Shown here piece by piece: positions 34 through 24,569 of a DNA stretch of 64,000 nucleotides. Source of the stretch: an uncultured virus (IMG/VR IMGVR_UViG_3300037488_001694) (lineage: Duplodnaviria > Heunggongvirae > Uroviricota > Caudoviricetes); IMG/VR virus record IMGVR_UViG_3300037488_001694, one strand, 5' to 3'. The notes below the pieces were generated by a model that was given only the letters and a program-made list of their open reading frames with translations, searched no databases and was not told the origin of the DNA. Position numbers and translations under genes: made by a program. The first letter of the stretch is position 1. Every line of letters begins with the position of its first letter.

Positions 34-105
34 GGTCCTATGGCCGAGAGATTTAGGCGCCGGTCTGCAAAACCGGTCAGATTGGTTTGATTCCAATTAG
101 GACCT
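34..105 (+). tRNA. tRNA-Cys(GCA)
   Basis: Acceptor GGTCCTA/TAGGACC, anticodon arm CCGGT-CTGCAAA-ACCGG, variant T loop TTTGATT; no encoded CCA. Confidence 0.85.
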
Positions 106-114
106 CAACAAAAT

Positions 115-188
115 GCCCTCATGGCGGAATAGGTATACGCGTGTGATTTAGGATCACAATTTTACAGGTTCGAGTCCTGTTGGGGGTA
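115..188 (+). tRNA. tRNA-Leu(TAG), short variable region
   Basis: Acceptor GCCCTCA/TGGGGGT, anticodon arm TGTGA-TTTAGGA-TCACA, T arm ACAGG-TTCGAGT-CCTGT. Confidence 0.85.
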
Positions 189-203
189 CAAATAAAGGTA
201 AAT

Positions 204-542
204 ATGTTAAGAGAATTTAAATTCTATAAAGACGAGGGGACGTGGTATGTGGATCTGCCCGAATGGGAAGGAAGTCGGGCAGATCTGGCAATGGTATCAG
301 GTGCCGATATAATGTTAGATATTGTATCTCAGGGTGAAAACGATATTAAAGTTTTATTGTCAACAGAAGATTTTGATGGATCCAATAGATTAGAATTTTT
401 AAGAGAAGCCCCTGAAGTTGGTGAAGGATCTTGGTATTTAATGAAAACATATAAGGGTATTGAATATAATTTGGAACTATGGTTATGTGATGTAACTATA
501 TTTGTATTTGGGGGATTTCCTAAAAATATTTACATATCATAA
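204..542 (+). CDS. hypothetical protein (DUF6717-like)
   Basis: Start moved to ATG 204 because the TTG start lies inside the tRNA; WYVDLPEW...LAMVSGADIMLD motif recalled from a phage/Bacteroidota family. Confidence 0.6.
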   Translation: MLREFKFYKDEGTWYVDLPEWEGSRADLAMVSGADIMLDIVSQGENDIKVLLSTEDFDGSNRLEFLREAPEVGEGSWYLMKTYKGIEYNLELWLCDVTIFVFGGFPKNIYIS

Positions 543-555
543 CATATTTATTGAT

Positions 556-1011
556 ATGAAAAAAATAGTTAGATTAACAGAATCAGATTTAATTCGTTTA
601 GTTAAACGAGTTGTTAAAGAAAATGAGGATGGATCCAAACCAGACATTTTAACTTACCTCAACGATAACTTCACACCAGACGGTGGATGGGATAATGAAA
701 AATTCCAAGATGGTTGGATGAATGGTGAACTTACCGCTTATTATGTAAATGGTAAATTAGCATTTATTTATAACACTGAATTTGATGACGATGGTGGAGA
801 GAGGGAATTTAATACATTAGTTGTTGGTCCTGAGGTATATGAAAAAATTAAGGAAATGTTTGGTAAAGGAGAATGGAAAGAAAGATTTACTAATTGGTTT
901 AAAGGAAATACTCGTTTAAACGTTGATGATGTTGAAATGGACGACTTTAAAGGTATCTTTTCTGACTATGTAGATCCTTCTTGGGCTGATGACGAAAATT
1001 GGGATTATTAA
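556..1011 (+). CDS. hypothetical acidic protein with MKKIVRLTESDL N-terminal peptide
   Basis: ATG 556 is preceded by TATTTAT (545-551). Confidence 0.75.
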   Translation: MKKIVRLTESDLIRLVKRVVKENEDGSKPDILTYLNDNFTPDGGWDNEKFQDGWMNGELTAYYVNGKLAFIYNTEFDDDGGEREFNTLVVGPEVYEKIKEMFGKGEWKERFTNWFKGNTRLNVDDVEMDDFKGIFSDYVDPSWADDENWDY

Positions 1012-1080
1012 AAATAAAATAAAAAACTTGACACTTTCAAAAAGTATCATATATTTATAACAAAACATTAAAAAACGCAA

Positions 1081-1149
1081 ATGAAAAATTTACACATATT
1101 ATTGATAGGCGCGGATTTAGCTGAGACAACCTTCAAGGAGATGGTGTAA
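1081..1149 (+). CDS. 22-aa putative leader peptide MKNLHILLIGADLAETTFKEMV
   Basis: Short ORF after TTGACA and TATTTAT motifs and an A-rich leader; its 3' end can pair with the downstream terminator stem. Confidence 0.45.
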   Translation: MKNLHILLIGADLAETTFKEMV

Positions 1150-1170
1150 ATTTTTGTATATATGAAATTT

Positions 1171-1201
1171 AAAACCCATCTCCAAAAGAGGTGGGTTTTT
1201 T
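1171..1201 (+). terminator. intrinsic terminator
   Basis: AAAACCCATCTC-CAAAA-GAGGTGGGTTTT followed by a T tract. Confidence 0.8.
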
Positions 1202-1262
1202 GATTTTATAAGTTTTTTTAAAAATATTTTACAAAGTGTTTGTCGGATTGAAAAATTCTACT

Positions 1263-1298
1263 TATCTTTGTGGAACAAAAGAAAAAGGTTCTTTGACA
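1263..1298 (+). promoter_or_regulatory. Bacteroidota-type -7 promoter element plus boxA-like element
   Basis: TATCTTTG at 1263-1270 and GTTCTTTGACA at 1288-1298, directly before the tRNA run. Confidence 0.6.
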
Positions 1299-1312
1299 TA
1301 ATGGTAAAAAAT

Positions 1313-1392
1313 GGTTCGGTGGTGAAATTGGTATACACGCTGCGTTTAAGCCGCAGTCCATACGGTTGTGGGTTCGAGTCCCACCCGGACTA
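1313..1392 (+). tRNA. tRNA-Leu(TAA)
   Basis: Acceptor GGTTCGG/CCGGACT, anticodon arm CTGCG-TTTAAGC-CGCAG, T arm GTGGG-TTCGAGT-CCCAC. Confidence 0.9.
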
Positions 1393-1401
1393 CAAATATA
1401 T

Positions 1402-1474
1402 AGCGGGATGTGGAAGATGGTTATCCGCTGGGTCTCATAAGCCTAGATCGCAGGTTCGAATCCTGCTCCCGCAA
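1402..1474 (+). tRNA. tRNA-Met(CAT), initiator-like
   Basis: Loop CTCATAA; 1:72 mismatch over a GCGGGA/TCCCGC acceptor, as in tRNA-fMet. Confidence 0.8.
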
Positions 1475-1505
1475 CTAAAGAGTAAAACTTTTTATTCTTA
1501 AAAAT

Positions 1506-1644
1506 TTGATAGTGGTTTTCCCCACTCAACGGATGTCGACAATCCAGAGTGGAATCGGAATTCAGCACCCTTTCTGCCGAGGCCTCGTAAAACTACGATT
1601 AAGCAGTTAAGATTGGAGCGAGACGGGTACTCCATCACTATCAA
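1506..1644 (+). ncRNA. unidentified structured RNA
   Basis: Closing stem TTGATAGTG/CACTATCAA; internal stems CCACTC/GAGTGG, CTGC/GCAG, TCGTA/TACGA, TGGAG/CTCCA; lies within the tRNA operon. Confidence 0.5.
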
Positions 1645-1653
1645 CAAAATTAT

Positions 1654-1734
1654 GCTGACGTACCAGTGGATGCTTATATCATCTATGCCTGTAGTGGTAA
1701 GTTTAAAACGTTGGTTCGAATCCAACCGTCAGTA
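1654..1734 (+). ncRNA. tRNA-like RNA with no canonical D arm
   Basis: Acceptor GCTGACG/CGTCAGT and perfect T arm GTTGG-TTCGAAT-CCAAC; non-canonical interior with hairpin loop CTTATAT. Confidence 0.6.
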
Positions 1735-1740
1735 CAATAA

Positions 1741-1813
1741 GCGGGAGTAGCTCAGTTGGTAGAGCTATAGCCTTCCAAGCTATAGGTCGCGAGTTCGAAT
1801 CTCGTCTCCCGCT
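1741..1813 (+). tRNA. tRNA-Gly(TCC)
   Basis: Canonical cloverleaf; anticodon arm ATAGC-CTTCCAA-GCTAT. Confidence 0.95.
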
Positions 1814-1815
1814 CT

Positions 1816-1936
1816 AAACAATTAGTCGTACAAGGGCAACGCGAATACAGATAAGGGATACTACTCCACCTAATGGAAGCGGCCGATACATCCATAGGTC
1901 TACGAAGCCGATCGTAGTTGAGCCTACTAATTGTTT
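1816..1936 (+). ncRNA. unidentified structured RNA
   Basis: 11-bp closing stem AAACAATTAGT/ACTAATTGTTT; inner hairpin CTACGA-AGCCGA-TCGTAG. Confidence 0.45.
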
Positions 1937-1941
1937 TTTAT

Positions 1942-2011
1942 GGGCCTGATGCCAACGGCAGGTCGACTGATTTGCAATCAGATCGTTTGGGTTCGATTCC
2001 CACAGTGTCCA
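1942..2011 (+). tRNA. tRNA-Ala(TGC), divergent
   Basis: Loop TTTGCAA, G3:U70 alanine identity pair, bulged acceptor stem, weak D arm. Confidence 0.65.
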
Positions 2012-2017
2012 CAATTT

Positions 2018-2089
2018 GGTCCGTTCGGCAAGGGGTTAAGCCGTCACCCTTTCACGGTGAAGTCACGGGTTCGATTCCCGTACGGACTA
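2018..2089 (+). tRNA. tRNA-Glu(TTC)
   Basis: Anticodon arm TCACC-CTTTCAC-GGTGA; canonical T arm. Confidence 0.92.
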
Positions 2090-2114
2090 CAACCCTGTCA
2101 AGGTAGAACAGGTT

Positions 2115-2198
2115 AGTCAGGAGTGTAATTAGACATCGGTGTCGATCCCTTCCGTTGAGGAAGGTTGCTCATTGTAGGTTCGAATCCTATCCTGACTA
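2115..2198 (+). ncRNA. tRNA-like RNA with aberrant D and anticodon arms
   Basis: Acceptor AGTCAGG/CCTGACT, T arm GTAGG-TTCGAAT-CCTAT; central hairpin CCTTCC-GTTGA-GGAAGG lacks a canonical anticodon loop. Confidence 0.6.
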
Positions 2199-2357
2199 CA
2201 CGTTTCGGTTCATCACCGAATAGTATGTCCAATACGATGAGAAATGAGTTGATTGCTCATATGGAACTTCTGATAGATAAAAGATCTATCCGGTTTGACT
2301 AACCGCGGGGAATATCAAAGAGAAGTAAAGAACAACGTACTCTCGTAAGTCAAAATT

Positions 2358-2432
2358 GGTCCATTGGTGTAGTGGCTAACATTCATCCCTGTCACGGATG
2401 AGCCGCGAGTTCGATTCTCGCATGGACCGCCA
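2358..2432 (+). tRNA. tRNA-Asp(GTC)
   Basis: Anticodon arm CATCC-CTGTCAC-GGATG; encoded CCA. Confidence 0.95.
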
Positions 2433-2499
2433 AAATTACCATTGTGAAACTATTGTGTTTAATAATACTTCACCTAATATTTATTAGATAAAGTATATA

Positions 2500-3849
2500 A
2501 TGGCACTAAAATCTTTAAGAATCACAAAAAAAGAACTCCAAACTTATTACACACCAAAAGTTTCTGATTATGAAATGATGGTTAATTCCATCAATTCTAA
2601 TATGGGATATGGTCAAATTATTCAAGCATATACTTCTACAGAAACTGGTGTTGAAGTAACCAACACGTATTATCATGTTTATAATGATATATATGGTGGT
2701 CCAGTTGTTATGGATAAAACTTCCGGAACAAACTCATCTGTTGCGGATGCCGGTCCTTCATTTTGGGGAGTTGGTTCAAACATAGGTATAGATTTTTTAA
2801 ATGGTGTTGCTGGTATATCAGGTCTCAGAAAATTAAAATATTGTGATGGATGTTCAGATGGTAATGGTCTTGATAAACCGGTCGTTGATAATTTTTCAAA
2901 AAGATTTAGAAAAGTAGAAGAATTAGTTTTAGGTAATAATCTTTTGGAAGGATTTCTTTTTTATGATCTTGAATTACCTAAATACTCTAATGTTTTTCCT
3001 GCAATCAAAAAAGATGATGGTGTTAATATTACTTATCAATTTAAAGATGTTAATACGGGAGCCGATTTAACGCCTGAAGATGTTGCCACAATTACGCAAA
3101 AACCAGTAATTGAAATTGAAGAATCCGTTGATACCGCCCCTATTATTAAACCACAAGAAGGTGAAAATACAGTTATTACTTCATGTTGTGATGAATCAAT
3201 TTCTTATGTGATTTCGGGGAAATACACTATAGGGGAGATTTTACAAATAGAAGGATTGACAGAATCAATTTGTTGGTTCATTGAATCATTAACTAATGAT
3301 TCACCAAATTTACCTTTTGGAACTTCAATTGTCGATAAACAAAGAAGTTGCGAGGCTTGTGTTAAATTAAATCCATGTCCCACATCTTGTGAAGATATTG
3401 ATTTATCTTATTCTGAGAATGCATTTGATGTTTGTTATATGGGTCGAAAACGCGGCACGTTCCAAGTTAATTGGAAAAGTGGTGAACTCTTTATTAATGG
3501 TGAGTGCGGTAATAAATATGCGGAAATTGGTTATTATTCTAACGGTAAAAATATTTATTATTGGGATCAAAAATCTTTTACAGAACAAGGTCCTTGTGGT
3601 GGTGGAAGTAATAATTACACCATTAGATATTGTTGTGATGAATTTGCGGAAACTGTTGATGCCGGACTTAAGGGTCTAACCCCTGGTACATTTGTTTATT
3701 TCTCGGCAGATGATAGTGACACTTATCCAGTACCTTGTTGGTATGTTGTTGGTCCATCACCTAAAAGTGTATCTATTACAGGTACATTCACGGGAGCCGT
3801 TTATGAAACTTGTAAAGATTGTACTAAACAAACTGGTAAATTTTGTTAA
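2500..3849 (+). CDS. Cys-rich hypothetical (likely virion) protein
   Basis: 449 aa; repeated CC...CW...CxxC modules in the C-terminal half; TATTTAT upstream. Confidence 0.7.
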   Translation: MALKSLRITKKELQTYYTPKVSDYEMMVNSINSNMGYGQIIQAYTSTETGVEVTNTYYHVYNDIYGGPVVMDKTSGTNSSVADAGPSFWGVGSNIGIDFLNGVAGISGLRKLKYCDGCSDGNGLDKPVVDNFSKRFRKVEELVLGNNLLEGFLFYDLELPKYSNVFPAIKKDDGVNITYQFKDVNTGADLTPEDVATITQKPVIEIEESVDTAPIIKPQEGENTVITSCCDESISYVISGKYTIGEILQIEGLTESICWFIESLTNDSPNLPFGTSIVDKQRSCEACVKLNPCPTSCEDIDLSYSENAFDVCYMGRKRGTFQVNWKSGELFINGECGNKYAEIGYYSNGKNIYYWDQKSFTEQGPCGGGSNNYTIRYCCDEFAETVDAGLKGLTPGTFVYFSADDSDTYPVPCWYVVGPSPKSVSITGTFTGAVYETCKDCTKQTGKFC

Positions 3850-3923
3850 GGTTAATTTAATTAAAACATTTGTCTAATTCAAAAATTATATCTATATTTG
3901 CATAGATAAATAAATTTACTGTT

Positions 3924-4196
3924 ATGAAAACATTTAAAGATTTAGAATTTGAACTAATTAATGATACTCCGTTTATGGTTGGTAAAAAATCCCGTATGCA
4001 TTTTGACAATGGGTTTGGTGTGTCTGTCGTATCACACACCTATTCATATGGGGGTCGTGATGGTCTTTATGAGGTTGCGGTTCTTGATAAAAATGGTGAA
4101 CTCACATATGATACTCCTGTAACAAATGACGTAATTGGTTACTTGAGGGAAAACGGAGTTACTAAAGTTATGGAAGAAGTACAGGAATTAAAATAA
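3924..4196 (+). CDS. hypothetical phage protein
   Basis: 90 aa; FDNGFGVSVV...SYGG..GLYEVAVL motif; TATATTTG promoter at 3893-3900. Confidence 0.75.
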   Translation: MKTFKDLEFELINDTPFMVGKKSRMHFDNGFGVSVVSHTYSYGGRDGLYEVAVLDKNGELTYDTPVTNDVIGYLRENGVTKVMEEVQELK

Positions 4197-4202
4197 TGGT
4201 AT

Positions 4203-4289
4203 AGTCAAGTGGCGGAATTGGTAGACGAGTCCCCCAAATATGGGATGGTAACAATAGTTATCGTGTAGGTTCGAATCCTACCTTGACTA
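4203..4289 (+). ncRNA. class II (Leu-like) tRNA-like RNA with 8-nt anticodon loop
   Basis: Acceptor AGTCAAG/CTTGACT, Leu-type D arm, long variable arm GGTAAC/GTTATC, perfect T arm; loop CCAAATAT lacks U33. Confidence 0.6.
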
Positions 4290-4294
4290 CTTTT

Positions 4295-4368
4295 GGTCTC
4301 TTAGCTCATTCGGTTAGAGCAACTGACTCATAATCAGTAGGTGGTTGGTTCGATTCCAACAGGGACCA
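4295..4368 (+). tRNA. tRNA-CAT (Ile2 or elongator Met)
   Basis: Canonical cloverleaf; ACTGA-CTCATAA-TCAGT. Confidence 0.9.
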
Positions 4369-4469
4369 CATAATAGATCTAATGCTAAAAAATAATAGAT
4401 CTACGCTAATTAACTGTTAATTGACTACACTTAAACACGTATATTTACGTTATTATATAAAAATAAGTT

Positions 4470-5788: not shown

Positions 5789-6403
5789 ATGTTTGAAAAT
5801 TTAACAGGTATTGTAATTGCGTTCATCACAGGAGTTGTTGGTCCAATCCTTGTTCTTTATATCAAGAGCAAATTAGAGGGTAAAAAAGAAAAACCCGATA
5901 TGGTAAAAGAAACTCTTCGTGTAAGTGAGTTAGTGACTTCAAAAATAGAACATATAAAAGAAGAATTTGATGCCGATAGAGTTTGGGTTACTCAATTTCA
6001 CAATGGAGGTAATTTTTATCCAACAGGCAAATCAATGGCTAAATTCTCAATAATGTATGAAACGGTAAATCCTGGTGTTGGATCTGTCCAAGGAAATTTC
6101 CATAATATTCCCGTTAATTTGTTTTCAAAATCAATTAACGAATTATTAAGTAATGACGTAATTGAAATACCTGACTTTAAAGATGAAACTGTTGCAACGT
6201 ATGGTTTGAAATATATTGCGGAAGATACGGGTTGTAAATCAGGTTATTTATTTGCAATTAAATCAATTGACGATAAGTTTATTGGTACTTTAGGTTTAGA
6301 TTATACTAAACGTAAGAAAAAGTTGGATATGGAATCTATTAACCATCTCCAAGTACGCGCATCTTCTCTTGGTGGCGTATTAATGACTCACTTAGAACAA
6401 TAA
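5789..6403 (+). CDS. N-terminal TM plus GAF-like domain protein (possible T-type holin)
   Basis: Hydrophobic N-terminal helix; ADRVWVTQFHNG...FIGTLGLDY GAF-like pattern; next to the lysozyme. Confidence 0.55.
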   Translation: MFENLTGIVIAFITGVVGPILVLYIKSKLEGKKEKPDMVKETLRVSELVTSKIEHIKEEFDADRVWVTQFHNGGNFYPTGKSMAKFSIMYETVNPGVGSVQGNFHNIPVNLFSKSINELLSNDVIEIPDFKDETVATYGLKYIAEDTGCKSGYLFAIKSIDDKFIGTLGLDYTKRKKKLDMESINHLQVRASSLGGVLMTHLEQ

Positions 6404-6438
6404 TTTGGTAATTAGAAAAATATTTATATCTTTGTGGT

Positions 6439-6945
6439 ATGAATATATTTTTTTTAGATTACGACACGAAGAAATGTGCTGAATATCATTGTGATAAGCA
6501 CGTAGTAAAAATGATCCTTGAGACGGCTCAACTTTTATGTGGGGTTCATCATTTGACCCCCCAAGTCACCCCCCAAGTCACCCCCCAAGTCCCGTACAAA
6601 TTATCACATAAAAATCACCCATGTGCTATATGGACTCGTGAGAGTTTATCTAACTATTTATACCTCTGTGATCTTGGTTTAGAGTTATGTAAGGAATATA
6701 CCTATCGTTATGGTAAGCGTCATAAATCACAGGATGTAATTGAGTGGTGTTTATGTAATAAACCTATGATCGTTGATCTTGGTTTTACTACACCTCCTAT
6801 GGCAATGCCTGACGAATATAAGGTTATGGATGTCGTCCAATCTTACAGAAATTACTATATGGGAGCAAAAAAATCCTTCGCAGTTTGGAAAAATAGAGAA
6901 GTTCCTGAGTGGTTTTCAAATAATGAAGTATTTATGGAAATATGA
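6439..6945 (+). CDS. pyrimidine-dimer DNA glycosylase / endonuclease V-like protein
   Basis: MNIFFLD...HCDKHVVKMILETAQLL...HKNHPCAIW signature. Confidence 0.75.
   Translation: MNIFFLDYDTKKCAEYHCDKHVVKMILETAQLLCGVHHLTPQVTPQVTPQVPYKLSHKNHPCAIWTRESLSNYLYLCDLGLELCKEYTYRYGKRHKSQDVIEWCLCNKPMIVDLGFTTPPMAMPDEYKVMDVVQSYRNYYMGAKKSFAVWKNREVPEWFSNNEVFMEI
6556..6593 (+). repeat. 12-nt tandem repeat x3 encoding TPQV
   Basis: (ACCCCCCAAGTC)3 in frame. Confidence 0.85.
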
Positions 6946-8378
6946 AATTAACTTATCCATTATCAAGTAAGGGAACCAAAACATCTAGTTATGGATATAG
7001 AACACACCCAATAAAAGGAACTCAAGGTCATCATAATGGTGTTGATATTGGAGTTCCTGATGGTACTGATGTTTTTTCAGTTGCTGATGGTGAGGTTGTT
7101 AGATCCGATATGAAGGATCGTAAAGGTTATGGTAATTTTATAATCGTTAAACATAGTGAAGAAGGTGAAACATTTTACTCGGCTTATGCCCATTTAACCA
7201 AAAGGTTGGTTGATGTTGGGGATAAGGTTAATCAGGGGGATAAAATTGCCGAATCTGGTGGAGGTCAAGGACTTGACAATGGTGGTGGTTCATCCACAGG
7301 TCCACACTTACATTTTGAAATTAGAAAATCTGAAAATGGTGATTGGGTTAATCCTGAACCATATATTAGCGGAGCGGAAATAGTTAATGGGGATTTCAAT
7401 AAAAAAGATGAAACGTTACTTTTAAATAAATTAGTTGTTACGTATAATTTATCTGGTAGATCTAAAACTATTGTTGATACAGCAATATCATATTTAAAGA
7501 ACAAAGGAATTACAAATCCATATGCAATCATTGTGATATGTACGATACTATTGGAGAAATACGATATCATAAATGAGGAATCAACAAGTGAAAAGTTATT
7601 GGGCCCTAATTCTGTTACCATACCCTCCGATGGGGCTCATGCGGGACAGAGTGGGTGGCAAAGTGCAAACGCTTGGGATTTCAAAGCACCAATAGGAAGT
7701 CCTGTTTTTGCGGTCAATTCAGGTAAGTTAATAACTTGGTCTGATTATGGTCAGAGCGTTAAGAAAAGAGGTGGTAAAAAACTATATGGTGAAAGTTTTA
7801 CTGTCAAAACTGATAATGATCTACCAAGTGTTTATTATACTCACTTAAAAGATACCAAAGTTAGAAAAGGTGACCAGGTTGAATGTGGACAATTATTAGG
7901 GTATGTAATGGATTTCCCTAATAGTGATTATGATCACGTTCATATTGGTATTGAAAGTGGAAATATTAGACAATTTGTTAATAGTGATGGTACATTAAAA
8001 TGTAAATCATCCGGATCTCAGAAAATAGATCAAAATATTTTAACTTTAATAAAATCAGATATAGATCTACTTACCAAAGATAAAGATATTATAAATGACT
8101 TTAAATCATTGGATGGGGCAATCGAATACTATTCAAATGTTGAATTATCTGATGGGACAAAAATATCTAAAGAAAAATTAAAATCAGGATCCTCAAAGTT
8201 TGATGTTAAAATGGAATCAAAACAATCTGAAATAAAAGATATTGAAGGTTTTCTTAAAGCGTTATTAAAGATTCCTGAACTTGGTGCCAAGATTAGAAAA
8301 GAAAGAGGATTAGATGAAAACATTCAATTAACGGAAGAAATTAATAGAATGAAAGATTTAATTAAAAAAATACTATAA
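6942..8378 (+). CDS. tandem M23 peptidase-domain protein
   Basis: HNGVD...YAHL...STGPHLHFE and a second domain with AWDF...YTHL...DHVHIG. Confidence 0.85.
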   Translation: MKLTYPLSSKGTKTSSYGYRTHPIKGTQGHHNGVDIGVPDGTDVFSVADGEVVRSDMKDRKGYGNFIIVKHSEEGETFYSAYAHLTKRLVDVGDKVNQGDKIAESGGGQGLDNGGGSSTGPHLHFEIRKSENGDWVNPEPYISGAEIVNGDFNKKDETLLLNKLVVTYNLSGRSKTIVDTAISYLKNKGITNPYAIIVICTILLEKYDIINEESTSEKLLGPNSVTIPSDGAHAGQSGWQSANAWDFKAPIGSPVFAVNSGKLITWSDYGQSVKKRGGKKLYGESFTVKTDNDLPSVYYTHLKDTKVRKGDQVECGQLLGYVMDFPNSDYDHVHIGIESGNIRQFVNSDGTLKCKSSGSQKIDQNILTLIKSDIDLLTKDKDIINDFKSLDGAIEYYSNVELSDGTKISKEKLKSGSSKFDVKMESKQSEIKDIEGFLKALLKIPELGAKIRKERGLDENIQLTEEINRMKDLIKKIL

Positions 8379-8463
8379 CTTTCTTGTTTTATTGACATAT
8401 TTATATTATCTTTGTGTCATAATTAAACAGTTCATTAATTTATTAACCCTTAAAACTCTTATT

Positions 8464-8616
8464 ATGAGTGAAACAATTGTGATTGACAATGTCATATTTT
8501 CTTATATTGGATCCGATGGTAAAAGATATTATACTCCAAGTGCTGAGTTTGCTACGGCACAAGCGAGAAAATACGGTACCGAAGATATTTTTATAGAAAA
8601 ATACGAAAAAATTTAA
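8464..8616 (+). CDS. small hypothetical protein (50 aa)
   Basis: ATG 8464 downstream of a TATCTTTG promoter. Confidence 0.55.
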   Translation: MSETIVIDNVIFSYIGSDGKRYYTPSAEFATAQARKYGTEDIFIEKYEKI

Positions 8617-8647
8617 CAAAGTACTTGACAGATTGAAATAAATTACT

Positions 8648-8694
8648 TAACTTTGTAAAACAAATCAGGAAAAGTCCTGAAACGTTCTTTGAAA
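8648..8694 (+). promoter_or_regulatory. promoter with rrn-like boxB/boxA leader
   Basis: TAACTTTG (8648-8655), hairpin TCAGGA-AAAG-TCCTGA (8665-8680), GTTCTTTGAAA (8684-8694). Confidence 0.6.
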
Positions 8695-8696
8695 AA

Positions 8697-9562
8697 ATTA
8701 GATTATCCGTTCAGGAGTAAGTAATGAAACTGATAAAGATATTGGGCCGTGTATAGTCCATGAAATAAACTACGAAAGTAGGATAAAGTGAATCGGAAGT
8801 GTAACCGATTTGCGGTTTGAAAACCCGAAAGGGAATTCGAACTTGAGTACACAAGCGGGATACCGTTTAATCTTGAGTACCGAGGGCAACGCTGTAGGGA
8901 AACTGGTTAAGTGATTTGGCGATGTGGGTCGTCAAATTGAGATGGGAACATCAATAGGAATAACTCGTAGGGATATTGCAAAAAATGAAGTTATCCAATT
9001 TCATTATTGCGTGTTCCAATATAAGAGAGTACTTAAAACCGAAAGGTATGTTAATGTACGGGTGGTGCCGTTATTAACCTTGATAAACTTCTACCAAGGG
9101 GTTAATCTCGAAGTAATCTTAAAATATGGAAATGGGGACATTTCAAGGAGTAGTTGAGTATTCCGTTGTTCAAAAGATAACGGATCCCGCGACGGACCAC
9201 TACTTCTACAATCCACGACACAAAACTTTATTTTACATTGAAGAGTAAAATCATAGATATGACTTAAAGCAAAAGTGTTCGTCAGGTAACAGTGAAAGGT
9301 GACTACATAGTAATGAGCCGTTCATTGCATCGTTTAGACCGCAAGTTTAACGATATTCTTACCAAACACCTCTAGTCCCGCAAGGACAAACTGGGAAGGC
9401 ATTCTCGGAGAGAGTCGAGTAATAAGAGAGTAACTGTTATCTTAAGAAGTGATTGGTCTAACCAATCGTCACTGAGAAATACCATTCAAAAGATGGTGGA
9501 TAAGTAGGGAAACAATAATACTACTAAAGGTTCTCACAGAAAACTGTAATCTCAGGTTTTTA
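8697..9562 (+). ncRNA. large structured ncRNA, GOLLD-like candidate
   Basis: ~870 nt with no credible ORF, GC above the flanks, many hairpins with GAAA/GCAA loops; size and phage/tRNA context fit GOLLD; family not confirmed, ends approximate. Confidence 0.65.
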
Positions 9563-9643
9563 TTTTTTAGGTAAACTTATTAAGTTAAAAAAATTAATTA
9601 GGGACAATGTAAATTGATCCCTTTTTTTGTTTATATTTGTATC

Positions 9644-10078
9644 ATGAAAAAATCTGTAAACATAATCAACAAGAAGGCTAAATTTGAATATGAATTTATT
9701 CAGGTAGAGATTGCCGGTATAAAACTTTCAGGATCAGAAGTGAAAGCGATCCGAATGGGTAAAGCATCCATCTCTGAAGGGTATTGTTATTTTAACAATG
9801 GAGAGTTATATATCAAAGGTATGAACATAACTGACTATGGATATGGATCAACACATGAAACAATAAGAGATCGTAAACTCTTACTTAAGAATAGAGAATT
9901 ACGTAATTTGGAAAATCAGTTAATAAATGGTTTAACAATTATTCCTTATCGTTTATTCCTTAATGATAGGGATCTTATCAAAATTGAGATCGCTCTGGCT
10001 CGTGGTAAGAAACTTTACGATAAACGACAATCGATCAAATTAAGAGATATTGATCGTGATATTAAAAGAGGTAATTAA
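9644..10078 (+). CDS. smpB: SsrA-binding protein SmpB
   Basis: NKKAKFEY...AGIKLSGSEVKAIR...RKLLL...LARGKKLYDKR. Confidence 0.95.
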   Translation: MKKSVNIINKKAKFEYEFIQVEIAGIKLSGSEVKAIRMGKASISEGYCYFNNGELYIKGMNITDYGYGSTHETIRDRKLLLKNRELRNLENQLINGLTIIPYRLFLNDRDLIKIEIALARGKKLYDKRQSIKLRDIDRDIKRGN

Positions 10079-10091
10079 TACCTCTTTTTTT
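10064..10091 (+). terminator. smpB terminator
   Basis: AAAAGAGGTA-ATTAA-TACCTCTTTT followed by a T tract. Confidence 0.7.
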
Positions 10092-10142
10092 GTGCACTAA
10101 AATATAATAATCATACAACATTAATCTATAATTTTACCGCAT

Positions 10143-10173: not shown

Positions 10174-10571
10174 TGGTGGAGGTAGAGGGATTCGAACCCT
10201 CGTGTTGTCCATCTTGACTACTAAGGACTACACGCTTAGGACAACATTTGATCTAATGTTCCGAAATCTCACAATTCCCTTATTTTTAAAGTGGTTCGTT
10301 TTACTGAGAACTAATCCTCCACTTATTCCTTTTACGATAGAAACCACATCTTTGTAAGGACTTCTGTTCCTAGGTTGTATGTCCACCGACCCGATTGGTG
10401 TTTCCTAACTGTTAGGCTACTACCGCAGCGTCTTCACGGATAAGACCGATTGCCGCCATTTTGTCTAGAACGTTTCCGTCTAATTGTTGACTCCATAGAT
10501 TAAAGTGATAGGAACCCTCTCACTGCGTGCCCCGAATAACCAACTATGTCAGTCGATTCCAAGTTACCCCC
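10174..10571 (-). ncRNA. ssrA: tmRNA
   Basis: 5' GGGGGTA pairs with TACCTCC-A-CCA 3' (G3:U pair); GGAATCGAC 5' motif; T arm GAGGG-TTCGAAT-CCCTC; internal tag ORF 10477-10412; adjacent to smpB. Confidence 0.95.
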
Positions 10572-10650
10572 ATATGTTAAAGAACTAATTTATAAATACA
10601 AAGATAATACAAAAAAACAATATTCCAAGCATTTAGGATATTTATTTTAT

Positions 10651-12045
10651 ATGAATTACGGGAAATATAATCCATACGAATCTGGTGACGTAGAAATTGT
10701 TAGTGAAGACGAAAATTTAAAGATAGTAAAGGTATTATCTAAAGATGCCGCATTTTATTTTGGTGGGGATTTATATAGTCAAAATTGGGATGATAATTTC
10801 AGAGATGGTGATTTGTATTTTTTAATTAGTTCTGATCCTGACGTTCAAGTATTCTCTATACATAATAGAGACAATCAGGATGCAAGTGTTGTAAGATATG
10901 GATATGATAAAAATGGATTTACAAATACCGATGATCTAAAAAAATACTTCCCTAAATCAATTAAAGTTTTAAACCCAATAATAAGATTTGGTAAAACATA
11001 TGAATTCTTAAAAAGTGTTTATAATGGGTATGAACCAAGATGGAGTGAAGATGGTGGTGATAAGATCATAAGTGAAATCAAATTTAATCGTAGTAACCCA
11101 AATAATTCAATTGTTGTTATTGAGTTTAATGATGATGAAGATTTTTTAAATATTTTTGATCTTGACAGTGATGATATGTATGAATGGAGATATTATATGT
11201 CTGACTATTCAAATGTTGATTACGATACTTATAGATATACGGAAGATTGGGACGAAGGTGATTTTTTCCAGTATGCGTTTAATGATCAGAATAAAGAAAA
11301 ATTGATTAATATCGTTAGAACATTTTTTCCTTCTACTGACATTACTGACACAAAAAAAATATCAAAATTGGCAAATGAAATTGACTCCGATTTCGTTGAT
11401 AGGGTTGTGGATGAATATGCGTCAGAATGGGAAAACTGTATATACAATAATGCAAGGGATGAAATAAGATCTGAACTTGATAATCCATTTGTTAAATTTG
11501 GGATTAAACAAAAGTCATTAGCATATAAATATGAGTCAACCGTAGGGGTCCTTTTAACGTGGTATAAACAACTAAAATCTGAAGACGTTGATCTTGGTGG
11601 TCTATTAAAAGAATTGATAGATAAATTTGATAAAAGCTATAGAGGTAATTGGGGTGAACTAAGATATAATGGTGATTGTCCTGAATGGGATAATGAGGGG
11701 TATGAAGCTTATCAAACTTATGTTTCCGATAGGTTAGATAAAATTATTGAGAAATACGAAGAAGATGAAAGATTTGTTAATTATAATGAATTCATAGAAT
11801 TACAACAAAAGATTGATCAAGAATATGGGTTTGGTAAGTGGATACCAGTTAAAACAGATGAGAACACATATTTCAAAATAGATAAAATTGATCCTGAAAC
11901 AAATAAGATTATCATTACCCTTAGAAATAATACAAGTGATGACCGTGAACAAAAAAGATCTGTAGATTTTGAAGATCTAAAAAGAATTGAAACCCAATAC
12001 GAATTATTTGAACAAATCAAAAGAATAGTTGGTATATTGAAATAA
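10651..12045 (+). CDS. hypothetical acidic protein
   Basis: Start moved to ATG 10651 (TATTTAT at 10639; the upstream ATG overlaps the tmRNA). Confidence 0.75.
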   Translation: MNYGKYNPYESGDVEIVSEDENLKIVKVLSKDAAFYFGGDLYSQNWDDNFRDGDLYFLISSDPDVQVFSIHNRDNQDASVVRYGYDKNGFTNTDDLKKYFPKSIKVLNPIIRFGKTYEFLKSVYNGYEPRWSEDGGDKIISEIKFNRSNPNNSIVVIEFNDDEDFLNIFDLDSDDMYEWRYYMSDYSNVDYDTYRYTEDWDEGDFFQYAFNDQNKEKLINIVRTFFPSTDITDTKKISKLANEIDSDFVDRVVDEYASEWENCIYNNARDEIRSELDNPFVKFGIKQKSLAYKYESTVGVLLTWYKQLKSEDVDLGGLLKELIDKFDKSYRGNWGELRYNGDCPEWDNEGYEAYQTYVSDRLDKIIEKYEEDERFVNYNEFIELQQKIDQEYGFGKWIPVKTDENTYFKIDKIDPETNKIIITLRNNTSDDREQKRSVDFEDLKRIETQYELFEQIKRIVGILK

Positions 12046-12938: not shown

Positions 12939-15002
12939 TTAGATTGAGGGTTGATCCTCTTTCTTCTTTCTACCACGTTTCTTTGGTTCTTGAACTGTAC
13001 GAGATTCAATTACTATCTCCTCACCGTCTTTTACTAATAACATATAATCAGTTCCCTCAACAACCTCATTAAGAAGTATTTTTTCTGAGATTAGATCCTC
13101 AACTTTATCTTGGATTGCTCTCTTTAATGGACGAGCCCCAAACGTTTCATCAAACCCAACTTTAGAGATCAAGTCAATAACCGTTGGTTCGTAAGTAAAG
13201 TTGTATTTCATTTTGGTTAATCGTTTCATTAAACGATCAATCTCTAACTTAACGATTTTATCAATGTTTTCTTTCTTCAAAGAATTGAAGATAATAACAT
13301 CGTCAATACGATTAAGGAATTCAGGTGCGAAAAACTTACCTAATTCTTTTTTGAGGATATCTCGTTTGTGCTCTTCTTTAACGATATCACTATTGGTTTT
13401 GAACCCAACACCAGCTCCGAAGTCCTGTAGTTTTTTAACCCCAATATTAGATGTCATAATGATTAGACAATTTTTGAAGTTAATTTTTCTACCTAAACCA
13501 TCAGTTAAGTGACCATCGTCCAACATCTGTAATAGTGTTGAGAAGATGTCTTTGTTTGCTTTCTCAATCTCATCAAACAAGATAACAGAGTAAGGTTTGT
13601 TTTTCACTTGTTCGGTAAGTTGTCCACCTTCTTCGTGACCTACATATCCTGGAGGAGAACCAATCAATCTTGAGATTGTATGTTTCTCTTGGTATTCAGA
13701 CATATCCACACGGATTAAGTTTTCTTCGTTACCAAAGATTTCTTTTGCCAATTGTTTAGCCAAGAATGTTTTACCAACACCTGTTGATCCTAAGAAAATA
13801 AACGATCCGATTGGACGATTTGGGTCCTTAATACCAACACGATTTCTACGAATAGATTTGGAGATTTTCATAACCGCTTCTTCCTGACCAATTACTGTGG
13901 AAGATAATGATGACTCCAAATTAACCAAAGTGTTCTTCTCATCCAAGTTTAATTTGGATACAGGAATTTTGGTCATGTTTGAAACTACCTCATAAATCAA
14001 TTCTTCAGGGATACCTCGTTTACTAACTCTAAGGTGTTCTTCAAATTTCTTCTTCTCCAACTCAAGGTTAGCCAATACGGTACGTTCTTTATCACGTAAC
14101 TCAGCCGCTTGTTCGTAATTTTGTTTTTTAATTACCTCAAGTTTTTCTTTCTTAATATCTTGAGCCTCAAGTTTAAGTTTTTCAATTACTTCAGGTAATT
14201 TGATGTCAATTTGCATTCTCGCACCAACCTCATCCAAAATATCAAATGCTTTGTCAGGGAATTCACGATCCGTAATGTAACGATCTGCCAATTCAACACA
14301 AACCAAAAGTGCCTCATCACTATAATTAACTTTATGGTGTTCCTCATACTTAGATTTACTTTGTTTAAGGATTTCAAAAGTTTCCTCTTTGGTTGAAGGA
14401 TCCACAACTACTTTTTGGAAACGTCTCTCTAATGCCCCATCTTTTTCAAAATGTCTTCGGTATTCATCCAAAGTTGTTGCTCCAACACATTGAATTTCTC
14501 CACGAGATAATGCTGGTTTGAAGATATTGGACGCATCTAAAGATCCTGAACTATTACCAGCACCAACCATTGTGTGAATCTCATCAATAAAGATAACAAT
14601 GTTTGGGTTTGATTGTAACTCCTCAATAATAACCTTCATACGCTCTTCAAATTGACCACGATATTTGGTACCTGCAACAATTGAATTAATATCCAAAGAT
14701 ACAATTCGTTTATCAACCAAATTTTTAGGACAATCTCCGTTGTAGATCATCATTGCTAATCCCTCAACAATAGCTGTTTTACCAGCTCCTGGTTCACCGA
14801 TAATAATAGGGTTGTTCTTTTTACGTCTTGATAAAACTTGAGCAATTCGTAGGATTTCTTTCTCACGACCAATAACGGGATCTAACTTCCCTTCTTCTGC
14901 CATTTTAATTAAATCCTTACTAAAGTTATCCAAAACCGGAGTTCCCCCACTACTTTCTGGTTTCTTTTTTCCTTTTTCGTTTTCGTCTTGAAATTCAATC
15001 AT
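12939..15002 (-). CDS. clpC: ClpC-type AAA+ unfoldase lacking the N-terminal repeat domain
   Basis: Two Walker A motifs ([16 protein letters not shown]), UVR-like [11 protein letters not shown], ClpP-docking VGF loop, FGARPLKR. Confidence 0.9.
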
Positions 15003-20509: not shown

Positions 20510-22273
20510 ATGGGTTTATCTAAAGAACAAGTAATGCTTGAGTATGTGAAGTGTATGAAGGACACAACTTACGCATTAAAAACTTATTTACAGACATATG
20601 ATAACACGGTTTCACAATATGTTCCGTTAGAGTTATTTCCCGATCAAATATCTTTATTACAAGATTACGAAAATTTTAATGAGAATATTGCATTAAAATA
20701 TCGTCAGGCGGGTGTATCTACGGTTACCGCGGCTTGGGCATCAAAACGATTAGCATTTGCTAAGAAAAACAAACCTGAAAAAATCCTTATTATTGCCAAC
20801 AAACTTGATACATCATTAGAGATGGCCAATAAGGTAAAGGCATTTATCGGTCAATGGCCTAAATGGGTTGGTGTAGATTTTTCAGCGGAAAAGAACTCAC
20901 AAAAACACTACAAATTAAATAATGGATCTGAGGTTAAAGCGGTGGCAACATCAAAAGATGCCTTACGTGGATTTACCCCCACAATACTTATATTTGATGA
21001 GGCCGCGTTTATTGAGGCCGACAGTGATTTCTGGGCGGCTTGTATGGCATCCTTATCCACAGGGGGTAAGGTAATTGTGGTTTCAACACCAAATGGTTAT
21101 GATCCAATTTATTATGAGATATATGATCAAGCATTAAGAAATATGAATGACTTCAAAATTTCTGAAATGTATTGGTTTAGAGATCCAAGATATACCAAAG
21201 ATTTATATTTAGTTAAAACACAGGATATTATTCATTATTTGTTAAATAAAGAGGAATATACTGATGATGATATATTAAGTTGGGAGGGCATTCCATTCGC
21301 CGAAAGAAATTATGATGACCTTAAAGCAATTATGGATACAGGTTATAAGGCTTGTTCTATTTGGTTTGAAGGGATGGTAAAAAAACTTAAATACGATAAG
21401 AGAAAAGTATCACAAGAGTTGGAGTGTAACTTCTTAGGATCGGGGGATAATGTCTTTGATTCAAATATGTTACAAAAAATTCGTGAGAATATGTTAAAAG
21501 AACCCCAAAATAAAATGATGGGTAATTCCTTATGGATATGGAAAGAGCCGGAAGTGGGTCACAAATACATTATGGGTGTTGACGTTTCTCGTGGGGATAG
21601 TGAGGACTTTAGTACAATCCAAGTTGTTGATTTTGACACGAGAGAACAGGTATTAGAATATATTGGTAAAATTCCACCTGACACATTGGCTGAGGTTGCC
21701 TTTAAATGGGCAAATATGTATTCGGCGTTTGTTGTTGTGGATATTACCGGTGGTATGGGTATTACCACAGTTCGTAAACTACAAGAATTTGATTATAAGA
21801 ATTTATATATTGATGGTGTAGACCAAAATAACATTTGGAGATCGGCATCAAGAACAGTAGATAAAATACCGGGAATTAACTTTAACGCTAAACGTGTTCA
21901 AATCATTGCGGCGTTTGAGGAAGGTCTGAGACACGGATTTAGAATGTATAGTTCAAGGTTATATAACGAGATGAATACATTCGTTTATATAAACGGTAGG
22001 CCCGATCACCAAAAAGGTCATCACGATGACTTAATTATGTCTATTGCCATGGCATTATACGTGGGAGAATCATCTTTCTCAAGTTTAGAGAAAGTTACGG
22101 AACATACCAAATCAATGATTGAATCTTGGACTGTGACTAATAATGAATCGGTAAAAGATATAATTAACTTTAATCCTACAATGCCAAATCTTAGTTATGA
22201 TTCAAGAAGAGATAGTAGTGCTCCAAGTAGAGCCGATTATGAAAAATACGGATGGTTATTTGGGGGAAGATAA
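20510..22273 (+). CDS. terminase large subunit (T4 gp17-like)
   Basis: KYRQAGVST Walker A-like, LIFDEAAF Walker B, VSTPNG, nuclease GVDVSRG and HDDLIMS. Confidence 0.92.
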   Translation: MGLSKEQVMLEYVKCMKDTTYALKTYLQTYDNTVSQYVPLELFPDQISLLQDYENFNENIALKYRQAGVSTVTAAWASKRLAFAKKNKPEKILIIANKLDTSLEMANKVKAFIGQWPKWVGVDFSAEKNSQKHYKLNNGSEVKAVATSKDALRGFTPTILIFDEAAFIEADSDFWAACMASLSTGGKVIVVSTPNGYDPIYYEIYDQALRNMNDFKISEMYWFRDPRYTKDLYLVKTQDIIHYLLNKEEYTDDDILSWEGIPFAERNYDDLKAIMDTGYKACSIWFEGMVKKLKYDKRKVSQELECNFLGSGDNVFDSNMLQKIRENMLKEPQNKMMGNSLWIWKEPEVGHKYIMGVDVSRGDSEDFSTIQVVDFDTREQVLEYIGKIPPDTLAEVAFKWANMYSAFVVVDITGGMGITTVRKLQEFDYKNLYIDGVDQNNIWRSASRTVDKIPGINFNAKRVQIIAAFEEGLRHGFRMYSSRLYNEMNTFVYINGRPDHQKGHHDDLIMSIAMALYVGESSFSSLEKVTEHTKSMIESWTVTNNESVKDIINFNPTMPNLSYDSRRDSSAPSRADYEKYGWLFGGR

Positions 22274-22664: not shown

Positions 22665-24569
22665 ATGGAAAATACTAATCAAAATCTAACAATTTGGCAA
22701 AGGTTATCAAAAACATTTGGACCTAATTCCTTATTGGGTCAAGATTTACCTACATACTCATTAGATAAAAAAGAGTTACTTAAAACTACAAATAAACAAG
22801 AATACGAAAGAGAAAAATTACAGGCTCAACAGTCCATGTATTTATCGGGACAATGGGCCAAAATTGAAAACAATCTTTATACTCAAGCGATTTATTATGA
22901 ACCAACTAGGTTGGCGGCATTTTATGATTACGAATCAATGGAGTTTACTCCTGAGATCTCAACGGCATTAGACATCTATGCCGAAGAATCCACAACACCA
23001 AATCAGGATGGTTATATTTTACAAATTTATTCTGAATCAAAACGTGTTAAAGGTATATTAACGGACTTATTTAACAATGTACTTGATATAAACACCAATT
23101 TACAGATGTGGACAAGAAATACCTGTAAATATGGTGACAATTTTGTATATCTAAAATTAGATTCAGAAAAAGGTATTGTTGGTTGTATGCAATTACCAAA
23201 CATTGAGATTGAACGATTGGAGAGAGGTATGGCAGCAAGATCAGTTAATGCCGAAGTTGACCCAAAAGAAAAAGGATTAAGATTCAATTGGAAAGTTAAA
23301 GATATGGAGTTTAATAGTTGGGAAGTTGCTCACTTTAGATTACTTGGTGATGATAGAAAATTACCTTACGGAACTTCCATGTTGGAGAAAGCAAGAAGAA
23401 TTTGGAAACAATTATTATTATCGGAAGATGCGATGTTAATTTACAGAACTTCAAGAGCACCTGAAAGAAGGGTGTTTAAAGTATTCGTAGGTAATATGGA
23501 CGATAAAGATGTGGAAGCATATGTACAACGTGTAGCAAACAAATTTAAACGTGATCAAATTGTAGATAATAAAACAGGTAATGTTGATTTACGTTTCAAT
23601 CAAATGGCGGTGGATCAAGATTATTTCGTACCCGTACGAGATGTTTCACAAACAATGCCGATTGAGACATTAGCAGGAGCACAGAACTTATCTGAAATTG
23701 CGGATATTGAATATATCCAAAAGAAATTGGTAACCGCATTACGTGTACCAAAAGCATACTTAGGATTTGAGGAAGTGGTTGGCGATGGTAAGAACTTATC
23801 ATTACAAGATATTCGTTTTGCGAGAACTATTAATAAAATACAAAAAGCAATGATTGCAGAAATGAATAAAATCGCAATCATTCACTTATTTATTTTAGGT
23901 TTTGAGGATGATCTACAAAACTTTACATTAGGGTTAACTAATCCGTCAAAACAAGCGGATTTATTAATGATTGACGTATGGAAAGAAAAAGTATTATTAT
24001 ATAAAGATTTAGTATCTGAAATACCTAATACTTTGGCGCCAACATCAGCAACTTGGGCTAAGAAACATATCTTTGGTTTCTCAGATGAGGATATTAAATT
24101 AGATACACAACAACAAAGATTAGAAAGAGCGGTTGCCGCTGAATTAGCAAATACCGCAACTGTTATTACACATACGGGTATGTTTGATGTTGTAGATAGA
24201 TTATATAAATCTAAATCAGGTTCTACTGAAAATCCACCAGCAGGTGGGGAAGCACCGGCAGGTGGTGGAGGTGGAGGATCTTTCGGAGGAGGAGGATCAT
24301 TACCTGACTTCGGTGGAGGGGGAGAAACTTCACCTGAACCGGCATTACCACCATTAGGGGGTGAAGAAGCGGGCGGAGCACCTGAAGCACCAGCACCGGG
24401 AGCACCACCAGAAGAGGAAGAAACTTTACCTGAAGGAAAGAAAAATGACAACTTAAATATCTTACTAGAAAGTGACGATATTCATGGTGACAAGTACATT
24501 GATTTATCAAAAGGTAGAAATTCTTTAGGTTCAATTGAAAACGAACTGAGCAAATTATTAAGAGATTGA
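22665..24569 (+). CDS. portal protein (T4 gp20-like)
   Basis: LLSEDAMLIYRTSRAPERRVFKV...QDYFVP...LRVPKAYL; Gly/Pro-rich C-terminal tail. Confidence 0.92.
   Translation: MENTNQNLTIWQRLSKTFGPNSLLGQDLPTYSLDKKELLKTTNKQEYEREKLQAQQSMYLSGQWAKIENNLYTQAIYYEPTRLAAFYDYESMEFTPEISTALDIYAEESTTPNQDGYILQIYSESKRVKGILTDLFNNVLDINTNLQMWTRNTCKYGDNFVYLKLDSEKGIVGCMQLPNIEIERLERGMAARSVNAEVDPKEKGLRFNWKVKDMEFNSWEVAHFRLLGDDRKLPYGTSMLEKARRIWKQLLLSEDAMLIYRTSRAPERRVFKVFVGNMDDKDVEAYVQRVANKFKRDQIVDNKTGNVDLRFNQMAVDQDYFVPVRDVSQTMPIETLAGAQNLSEIADIEYIQKKLVTALRVPKAYLGFEEVVGDGKNLSLQDIRFARTINKIQKAMIAEMNKIAIIHLFILGFEDDLQNFTLGLTNPSKQADLLMIDVWKEKVLLYKDLVSEIPNTLAPTSATWAKKHIFGFSDEDIKLDTQQQRLERAVAAELANTATVITHTGMFDVVDRLYKSKSGSTENPPAGGEAPAGGGGGGSFGGGGSLPDFGGGGETSPEPALPPLGGEEAGGAPEAPAPGAPPEEEETLPEGKKNDNLNILLESDDIHGDKYIDLSKGRNSLGSIENELSKLLRD

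Follow-up and report, generated by a model that had tools for sequence, protein, structure and literature searches.

GOLLD is among the largest bacterial non-coding RNAs. The family was reportedly first described by Weinberg et al. in 2009. The window, as the whole stretch of DNA analysed here is called, is a 64,000-nucleotide (nt) piece of an uncultured virus of the Caudoviricetes (IMG/VR record IMGVR_UViG_3300037488_001694). At 8648-9562 an initial annotation, made from the sequence alone, had placed a GOLLD-like giant RNA behind an antitermination leader in the style of ribosomal RNA (rRNA) operons, next to the genes for SmpB and transfer-messenger RNA (tmRNA). The region is almost certainly a GOLLD RNA gene, and a full one: an additional member of the already known family.

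The closest described counterpart of the leader is the boxB-boxA arrangement of rRNA operons (rrn), in which a promoter-proximal hairpin precedes a U-rich boxA-type motif on an untranslated transcript. The window leader shares these traits, and its motif is matched in the leaders and spacers of Bacteroidota rrn. BoxA classically sits in both the rRNA leader and the spacer, in E. coli as in other bacteria, and the same E. coli complex is reported to antiterminate and to aid rRNA folding. Lambda nut sites run from boxA to boxB, whereas in rrn the hairpin comes first; the window leader has its hairpin before boxA, as in rrn. Unlike rrn antitermination leaders, the phage element precedes a cage-type RNA, tRNAs and tmRNA rather than rRNA, and its factor binding is putative.

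For the RNA itself the point of comparison is structural. According to Kretsch et al. 2025, GOLLD forms a homo-oligomeric, RNA-only nanocage by cryo-electron microscopy (a 14-mer in env-38), lies in a tRNA-island context and is mentioned in a ribosome pull-down; the example GOLLD comprises a 5′ domain (residues 1-420) and a 3′ domain (residues 421-833). The same work presents ROOL as another large ornate phage or prophage RNA by tRNA islands that builds RNA-only cages, described as differing in sequence and fold. Scanning the whole window against Rfam yielded GOLLD, tmRNA and nine tRNA rows. The GOLLD match (RF02032, 9146-9558, plus strand) scores 326.5 bits against a gathering score of 150 (E = 9.1e-93) and spans the entire model, positions 1-416 of 416, a model that represents only the conserved 3′ domain of the family. 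No other Rfam family matched within 8648-9562 at gathering thresholds, which at those thresholds excludes ROOL, OLE, group I and II introns and RNase P.

The 5′ half was assessed by covariation. Homologues were collected with nhmmer (query 8740-9145) from the fetched loci, and of 60 near-full-length matches 36 were aligned after near-duplicates (more than 90% alike) had been dropped. On these 36 sequences RNAalifold predicts 104 pairs in 20 helices, 83 of them with changes on both sides. The structure was derived from the alignment on which it was tested, which gives it some favour, but the difference from the controls is very great: 97.5% of cells are paired, as opposed to 38-41% with partners slid by 1-3 columns, and the 83 compensatory pairs compare with 25-39 when slid. 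None of 500 shuffles matched any of the observed measures. Because this covarying 5′ half joins the Rfam-matched 3′ domain, the conserved body at 8742-9558 (817 nt, two domains) is a genuine two-domain GOLLD, which sharpens the GOLLD-like RNA first proposed. The features of the RNA and its 3′ end are as follows.

8742..9145, plus strand: GOLLD 5′ domain, about 20 helices, from homology in the 60 near-full-length matches and covariation
9146..9558, plus strand: GOLLD 3′ domain, matched by RF02032, including an A/U-rich unstructured linker at about 9205-9283
9559..9571, plus strand: U-run TTTTTATTTTTT directly after the last GOLLD helix, probable 3′ end
9600..9629, plus strand: terminator-like hairpin GGGACAAUG...UUGAUCCC plus U7, ahead of the SmpB promoter, from fold prediction

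The hairpins that had first drawn attention to this stretch can all be read: CTAC-GAAA-GTAG at 8771-8782, CCC-GAAA-GGG at 8825-8834, ACC-GAAA-GGT at 9039-9048, the stem GATTTGGCGAT/GTCGTCAAATT at 8913-8938, and the TCAAAAGA loop that caps two stems, at 9163-9183 and 9480-9498. The stretch was also said to hold no credible open reading frame (ORF), and the longest within 8648-9562 encodes 77 amino acids from a GTG start (8924-9157). A coding reading of this ORF was rejected because the helices it overlaps change compensatorily. The boundaries required some refinement: 8648 is the start of a −7 promoter box and not of the RNA, whose transcription is predicted to start near 8660, giving a primary transcript of about 900 nt if that start holds.

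The window RNA thus shares with the GOLLD family a full-length covariance-model match, a conserved 3′ domain beside a more variable 5′ domain, a length above 800 nt, an A/U-rich internal linker and a phage location near tRNA genes. The setting is that of a phage with a T4-type terminase and portal, nine tRNAs at 34-4369 and a tmRNA 0.6 kb downstream. Several traits distinguish this member and its group from the rest of the family: a promoter of their own with an rRNA-type hairpin-boxA leader, a neighbouring phage tmRNA (and SmpB too in the window's clade), and an origin in freshwater T4-like phages with probable Bacteroidota hosts. The linker of the window GOLLD is without an embedded tRNA. 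Named phage relatives are just two unannotated huge-phage records of about 65% identity, LR745206 and LR756502, in which GOLLD (5835-6852 and 6422-6910, respectively) is flanked directly by tRNAs.

The region is represented in environmental RNA libraries. Four metatranscriptome runs, belonging to three studies, gave contigs over about 8701/8735-9568 with a summed word depth of up to about 36,000, and contigs over the tmRNA at 10183-10545 at depths of 7-1,137; being assemblies of mixed relatives (90-100% alike), they speak to presence and not to strand, ends or level. Uncovered stretches (8300-8560, 9605-10126 over SmpB, and 10649-10900) are accordingly no evidence of silence or of transcript ends, and low cover over 8648-8734 is no sign of leader removal. 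In two of the studies contigs stop at 9566 and 9568, inside the U-run, a weak hint of the 3′ end, and a T-run follows GOLLD in LR745206 and LR756502 as well. Fourteen DNA runs contain at least half of the sampled words, under the labels lake water, sediment and plain metagenome; the sample from which the window came may be among them.

Upstream of the body lies the leader, whose −7 box and boxA-like motif recur at two other RNA genes of the window.

8625..8655, plus strand: promoter, TTGACA (8625-8630), a 17-nt spacer and TAACTTTG (8648-8655)
8665..8680, plus strand: leader hairpin (boxB-like), TCAGGA-AAAG-TCCTGA
8684..8694, plus strand: boxA-like motif GTTCTTTGAAA, its GTTCTT core invariant in alignment A2
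8698..8708, plus strand: clade-conserved TTAGATTATCC, read from A2
1263..1298, plus strand: tRNA-Leu/Met unit, −7 box TATCTTTG (1263-1270) and boxA-like GTTCTTTGACA (1288-1298), 15 nt before tRNA-Leu (1313)
10575..10606, minus strand: tmRNA promoter, −7 box TATCTTTG (10606-10599) and boxA-like GTTCTTTAACA (10585-10575)

The box TAACTTTG is of the Bacteroidota −7 type. In A2, an alignment of 16 leaders from the window's close clade, the TAnCTTTG box does not vary among the 16, and 9 of the 13 rows long enough to show it have TTGAC. The stem of the leader hairpin covaries within the clade, as CAGG/CCTG, CGG/CCG, TAGG/CCTA, GAGG/CCTC and AAGG/CCTT. The promoter, hairpin and boxA-like motif recognised at the outset are therefore present and conserved. 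A sigma-70 promoter and terminator scan flagged neither the GOLLD promoter nor the hairpin at 9600-9629; the consensus used does not suit Bacteroidota-type promoters. Counting from the −7 box, GTTCTTTGAAA lies 28 nt past TAACTTTG and 47 nt ahead of the conserved body, with a start that is predicted.

The motif is concentrated just upstream of RNA genes. The window has four copies of GTTCTTWRAMA where 0.86 would be expected, a count that 2 of 100 shuffles reach, and three of the four sites lie 14-47 nt before GOLLD, tRNA-Leu and tmRNA, each following a TAnCTTTG box; the fourth (GTTCTTAAAAA, 52349-52359, minus strand) has no detected RNA gene adjacent. Across 1.13 Mb of loci, 69 of 110 occurrences fall within 150 nt upstream of an RNA gene on the same strand, where about 2.3% would be expected by area, and they precede 46 GOLLD 5′ domains, 14 tmRNAs and 9 tRNAs. 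Measured from the 3′ domain, the motif lies 412-647 nt upstream (mostly 412-526) in 56 of the 87 GOLLD loci with enough upstream sequence, among the matches listed. One of the 56, LR745206, carries a 7-8-bp hairpin and GTTCTTTGAAA between its upstream tRNA and GOLLD; a three-way MAFFT alignment in which the leader seemed unconserved was dismissed as an alignment artefact for this phage. Taken together, the leader is very probably a functional conserved element.

Bacteroidota rRNA operons supply the comparison. A sample of 61 genomes was drawn from the phylum to which a Chitinophagaceae genome belongs; 16S was matched in 34 of them, giving 30 loci of which 29 could be oriented. In these 29, GTTCTTTGA(A/C/T)A (GTTCTTWRA[ACT]A) has 34 matches on the rRNA strand and 2 on the opposite strand. 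Fourteen sites fall in the leader (12 at 78-383 nt ahead of 16S), 20 in the spacer (297-658 nt after 16S), and none inside 16S in the oriented loci. At least one motif is present in 22 of the 29, several leaders being cut by contig ends. The spacer form GTTCTTTGACAtattgg nearly equals the phage tRNA leader GTTCTTTGACAtaatgg. By sequence, position and conservation, then, the rRNA-style leader that had been proposed holds, while the action of Nus factors on it stays at the level of a prediction. A literature search found no description of a Bacteroidota boxA.

Could the leader instead belong to the fold of the RNA it precedes? On this account 8660-8740 would form the first helices of the mature GOLLD and its likeness to boxA would be coincidental. 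GATAA(T), 40-100 nt downstream and immediately ahead of the body, could pair with ATTATC of TTAGATTATCC and so enclose a variable hairpin (a reading of the alignment only), and one RNA-library contig aligns from 8701. Yet the same motif stands before tRNA and tmRNA genes of this phage and its relatives and is position-specific in rRNA operons, and an 11-mer recurring across such unrelated contexts is not expected by chance; the account is highly improbable. A separate pairing, of leader AGATTA with the conserved final loop GTAATCTCA, was dropped, since an invariant loop gives no covariation test.

An antitermination leader would lead to the following course of events. Host RNA polymerase would start near 8660 from a strong Bacteroidota-type promoter, TTGACA-17-TAACTTTG, and the first 40 nt or so of the transcript would present the hairpin and then GTTCTTTGAAA, in the form found in Bacteroidota rrn. 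This leader would recruit a host antitermination complex of the NusB/NusE type, letting an untranslated RNA of about 0.9 kb be made quickly, without Rho-type or premature termination. The RNA would end at about 9566-9629 and fold into its two GOLLD domains; as a member of the family it would assemble into a nanocage, as seen for another GOLLD, and the best guess is that the cage holds or shields translation-related cargo during infection. The presence of one motif before the tRNA-Leu/Met unit, tmRNA and GOLLD would place all three in one stable-RNA expression class. A Nus-type antitermination signal, argued by analogy, is the role we lean towards for the leader, and the whole chain, from a host start near 8660 through a hairpin-boxA leader loading a Nus-type complex and rRNA-like protection to the GOLLD fold, is moderately likely.

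The hairpin ahead of the motif speaks for it. When the 34 nt before the motif are folded and a minimum free energy of at most −4 kcal/mol is taken as a stable hairpin, 25 of 33 unique GOLLD leaders have one (76%), as do 8 of 11 rrn leaders (73%) and 10 of 14 rrn spacers (71%), against 125 of 400 random phage 34-mers (31%). Several observations weigh against this chain. The rrn hairpin values are inflated because bacterial DNA is higher in G+C; just 1 of 11 tmRNA and 2 of 8 tRNA leaders have such a hairpin, though the motif is present. The motif is missing at its expected position in 31 of the 87 GOLLD loci, among the matches listed, LR756502 included, so GOLLD can do without it. In several of these 31 a tRNA stands directly before GOLLD, and four others, close relatives of the window (L138-L141), carry the variant GTTCTTTGAGA instead. 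GOLLD loci are phylogenetically related, so the motif counts overstate independence and are not counts of separate events. The transcription start is a prediction, the RNA contigs speak to presence only, the name boxA for the Bacteroidota motif draws on its rrn position and on the E. coli precedent, and cage formation by the window member is carried over from the cage of another GOLLD.

Some of the same observations suit a different role, in which hairpin and GTTCTTTGAAA are conserved and functional but serve the processing or maturation of stable RNAs, for instance as a nuclease or chaperone site that rRNA precursors also have, or in which a transcription regulator of phage or host binds there and sets the timing of stable-RNA synthesis. 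The motif precedes tRNA, tmRNA and GOLLD, whose 5′ leaders are or may be removed; in the tmRNA and tRNA units it stands just 14-18 nt before the mature 5′ end, with the hairpin lacking; and short, highly structured RNAs have scant obvious need of antitermination. Its occurrence in both the rrn leader and the spacer is, against this, the classic distribution of boxA, and a complex that in E. coli takes part in both antitermination and rRNA folding makes the two roles compatible. A processing or regulatory signal in place of an antitermination one is possible, if unlikely.

The position beside smpB and ssrA had been read as a hint of a role in translation. The adjacency itself is clear from the two neighbouring genes, and how far it extends was followed in three samples of loci.

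9644..10078, plus strand: SmpB gene, Pfam SmpB PF01668 at E = 1.6e-44; ATG 9644 is the likely start, TTG 9614 that of the ORF list
10174..10571, minus strand: phage tmRNA, RF00023 at 75.5 bits (cut-off 47), convergent with GOLLD and SmpB

Anchored on SmpB, 58 viral-contig loci with SmpB relatives were gathered, the 22 closest of which (67-92% identity) constitute the window's clade. GOLLD lies upstream on the same strand in 21 of these 22, the last having only 278 nt of upstream sequence, and tmRNA lies downstream on the opposite strand in 20, the other two running out of contig. The 36 more distant SmpB loci are without GOLLD, and most have smpB followed by tmRNA on the same strand. Starting from GOLLD, a scan with a 3′ motif gave at least 119 loci, 80 with 4-kb flanks, of which 70 were GOLLD by an iterated profile. 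Among the matches listed, tmRNA lies within 4 kb in 22 of these 70, always downstream and in 17 convergent, and none lies within that distance in the other 48; the gap is just 117-149 nt in seven loci, a tmRNA end falls within 300 nt of GOLLD in 4 of 31 short loci, and SmpB stands beside GOLLD in 0 of 55 first-pass-positive loci. An Rfam check confirmed GOLLD in 18 of 18 loci and tmRNA in 17, the eighteenth tmRNA being interrupted by a group I intron. Anchored on tmRNA, at least 115 loci were found, 80 of them flanked; most of the 80 lie at contig ends, often with a host-like smpB (33-45% identity), and GOLLD lies within 4.5 kb of 5 of 21 contig-internal phage tmRNAs, among the matches listed. 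Searched whole, neither of the two huge phages (634-642 kb) has a tmRNA that scores above the Rfam cut-off.

Clustering the flanking ORFs of 30 loci by gene order makes sense of these counts. The main backbone runs c3, c6, M23 peptidase, GOLLD, a variable slot, tmRNA, c0, an M20-like peptidase (c1) and a ClpB-like protein, and the slot between GOLLD and tmRNA takes several different inserts, SmpB among them; a second backbone, of five loci, has different neighbours and a same-strand tmRNA. Since most linked loci share one backbone, the adjacency of GOLLD and tmRNA is real and old, and mostly an inherited gene order in about two phage lineages. In three sources (Kretsch et al. 2025; PMC6582537; PMC12990946), Lactobacillales and mycobacterial GOLLDs are described beside tRNAs, not tmRNA.

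Could the cage work directly with the phage tmRNA and SmpB, storing, delivering or regulating tmRNA-SmpB or stalled ribosomes? Such a role would be compatible with an antitermination leader. It would fit the near-constant arrangement at the close SmpB loci, the consistently downstream tmRNA in 22 of 70 GOLLD loci, the GOLLD near 5 of 21 contig-internal tmRNAs, the proximity in two different backbones and the ribosome pull-down mentioned by Kretsch et al. 2025. Inheritance of a shared gene order, with SmpB as only one slot insert, nevertheless explains most of these counts; 48 of the 70 flanked loci and both huge phages are without a nearby tmRNA, no SmpB was listed in the broad GOLLD sample, and the described Lactobacillales and mycobacterial members keep other company. 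A direct partnership is quite unlikely. The adjacency is a modest hint of functional coupling, so that the original suggestion survives as a conserved synteny which is largely inherited and absent from most GOLLD loci.

The remaining genes of the window portray a T4-like phage region, with Terminase_6N at 20510-22273, Portal_T4 at 22665-24569, a lysozyme-LysM protein, an M23 peptidase, a ClpB/ClpA-like AAA+ protein, SmpB and the nine tRNAs. The nearest bacterial relatives of the phage SmpB belong to Bacteroidota (Pontibacter, Cytophagales, Flavobacteriaceae, Bacteroidales and others, at 45-61% identity), in agreement with the TAnnTTTG promoter boxes, and the host is probably a Bacteroidota bacterium. 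Relatives align to SmpB from about residue 11 on, and a −7 box, TATATTTG (9632-9639), ends 4 nt before ATG 9644, which suggests a leaderless or near-leaderless mRNA. A start at the upstream TTG 9614 would run through the terminator-like hairpin.

The phage tmRNA has an unusual tag. This tag, GNVLDKMAAIGLIREDAAVVA*, was deduced by homology to tags called by ARAGORN in relatives; it is long, at 21 residues, and ends VVA, and the similar tags of relatives end TVA, VVA, VAA or VGA. A terminator-like hairpin lies past the gene at 10170-10147. ARAGORN fails to call the tmRNAs of the window and of most relatives, and detection relied in its place on nhmmer profiles checked against Rfam. Group I intron matches lie near the 3′ part of the GOLLD-adjacent tmRNA in two loci (L040:5014-5237 and L043:5765-5981), and in L043 the tmRNA homology is split around the match. 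In the window, the gene for a ClpB/ClpA-like double-AAA+ protein (12939-15002, minus strand; cluster c5, part of the conserved backbone) lies 2.4 kb away from that of the tmRNA; with so unusual a tag nearby, this Clp-type ATPase of the phage might act on tagged proteins. In 24 of the 30 clustered loci a 499-amino-acid ORF (10546-12045, plus strand, in the window; cluster c0), without a Pfam match, comes after the tmRNA promoter region; its true start is probably downstream of the listed one, which overlaps the tmRNA 5′ end.

Some of the tRNAs are odd as well. ARAGORN calls over-long ones of 88-94 nt; that at 4203-4290 in the window has a four-base anticodon (aaat), and upstream of GOLLD in ten loci (L126, L129, L130, L132-L135, L137, L142 and L143) tRNAs of about 92 nt are called as 'tRNA-???', Pro or Thr. 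These may hold introns or be unusual tRNAs. Between the called tRNAs of the window, T-arm-like stretches, GGTTCGAATCC or GGTTCGATTCC with flanking stems, are seen at 1690-1740, 1960-2015 and 2140-2200, uncalled by ARAGORN and Rfam; they may be tRNA fragments or unconventional tRNAs.

No paper that connects GOLLD with boxA, antitermination, SmpB or tmRNA synteny emerged from a literature search; the original 2009 description and its supplements, which may bear on the point, lay outside that search. The boldest extension of the present observations would make GOLLD, the phage tRNAs and tmRNA a single stable-RNA regulon, switched on by boxA leaders that imitate those of rRNA and take over the Nus machinery of the host, with the cage as a scaffold or store in ribosome rescue together with tmRNA-SmpB and perhaps a Clp-type ATPase. 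This is a long shot; were it true, it would give GOLLD its first concrete function. Phage tmRNAs of the window type, meanwhile, escape a standard finder. Should the leader do what its sequence implies, these phages would produce GOLLD, tRNAs and tmRNA as cells produce rRNA, which would explain a high RNA yield from an untranslated gene and would offer 11 bases as a simple mutational handle. The recurring GOLLD-tmRNA(-SmpB) neighbourhood, for its part, narrows the search for the cargo or partner of the cage to the translation-rescue machinery.

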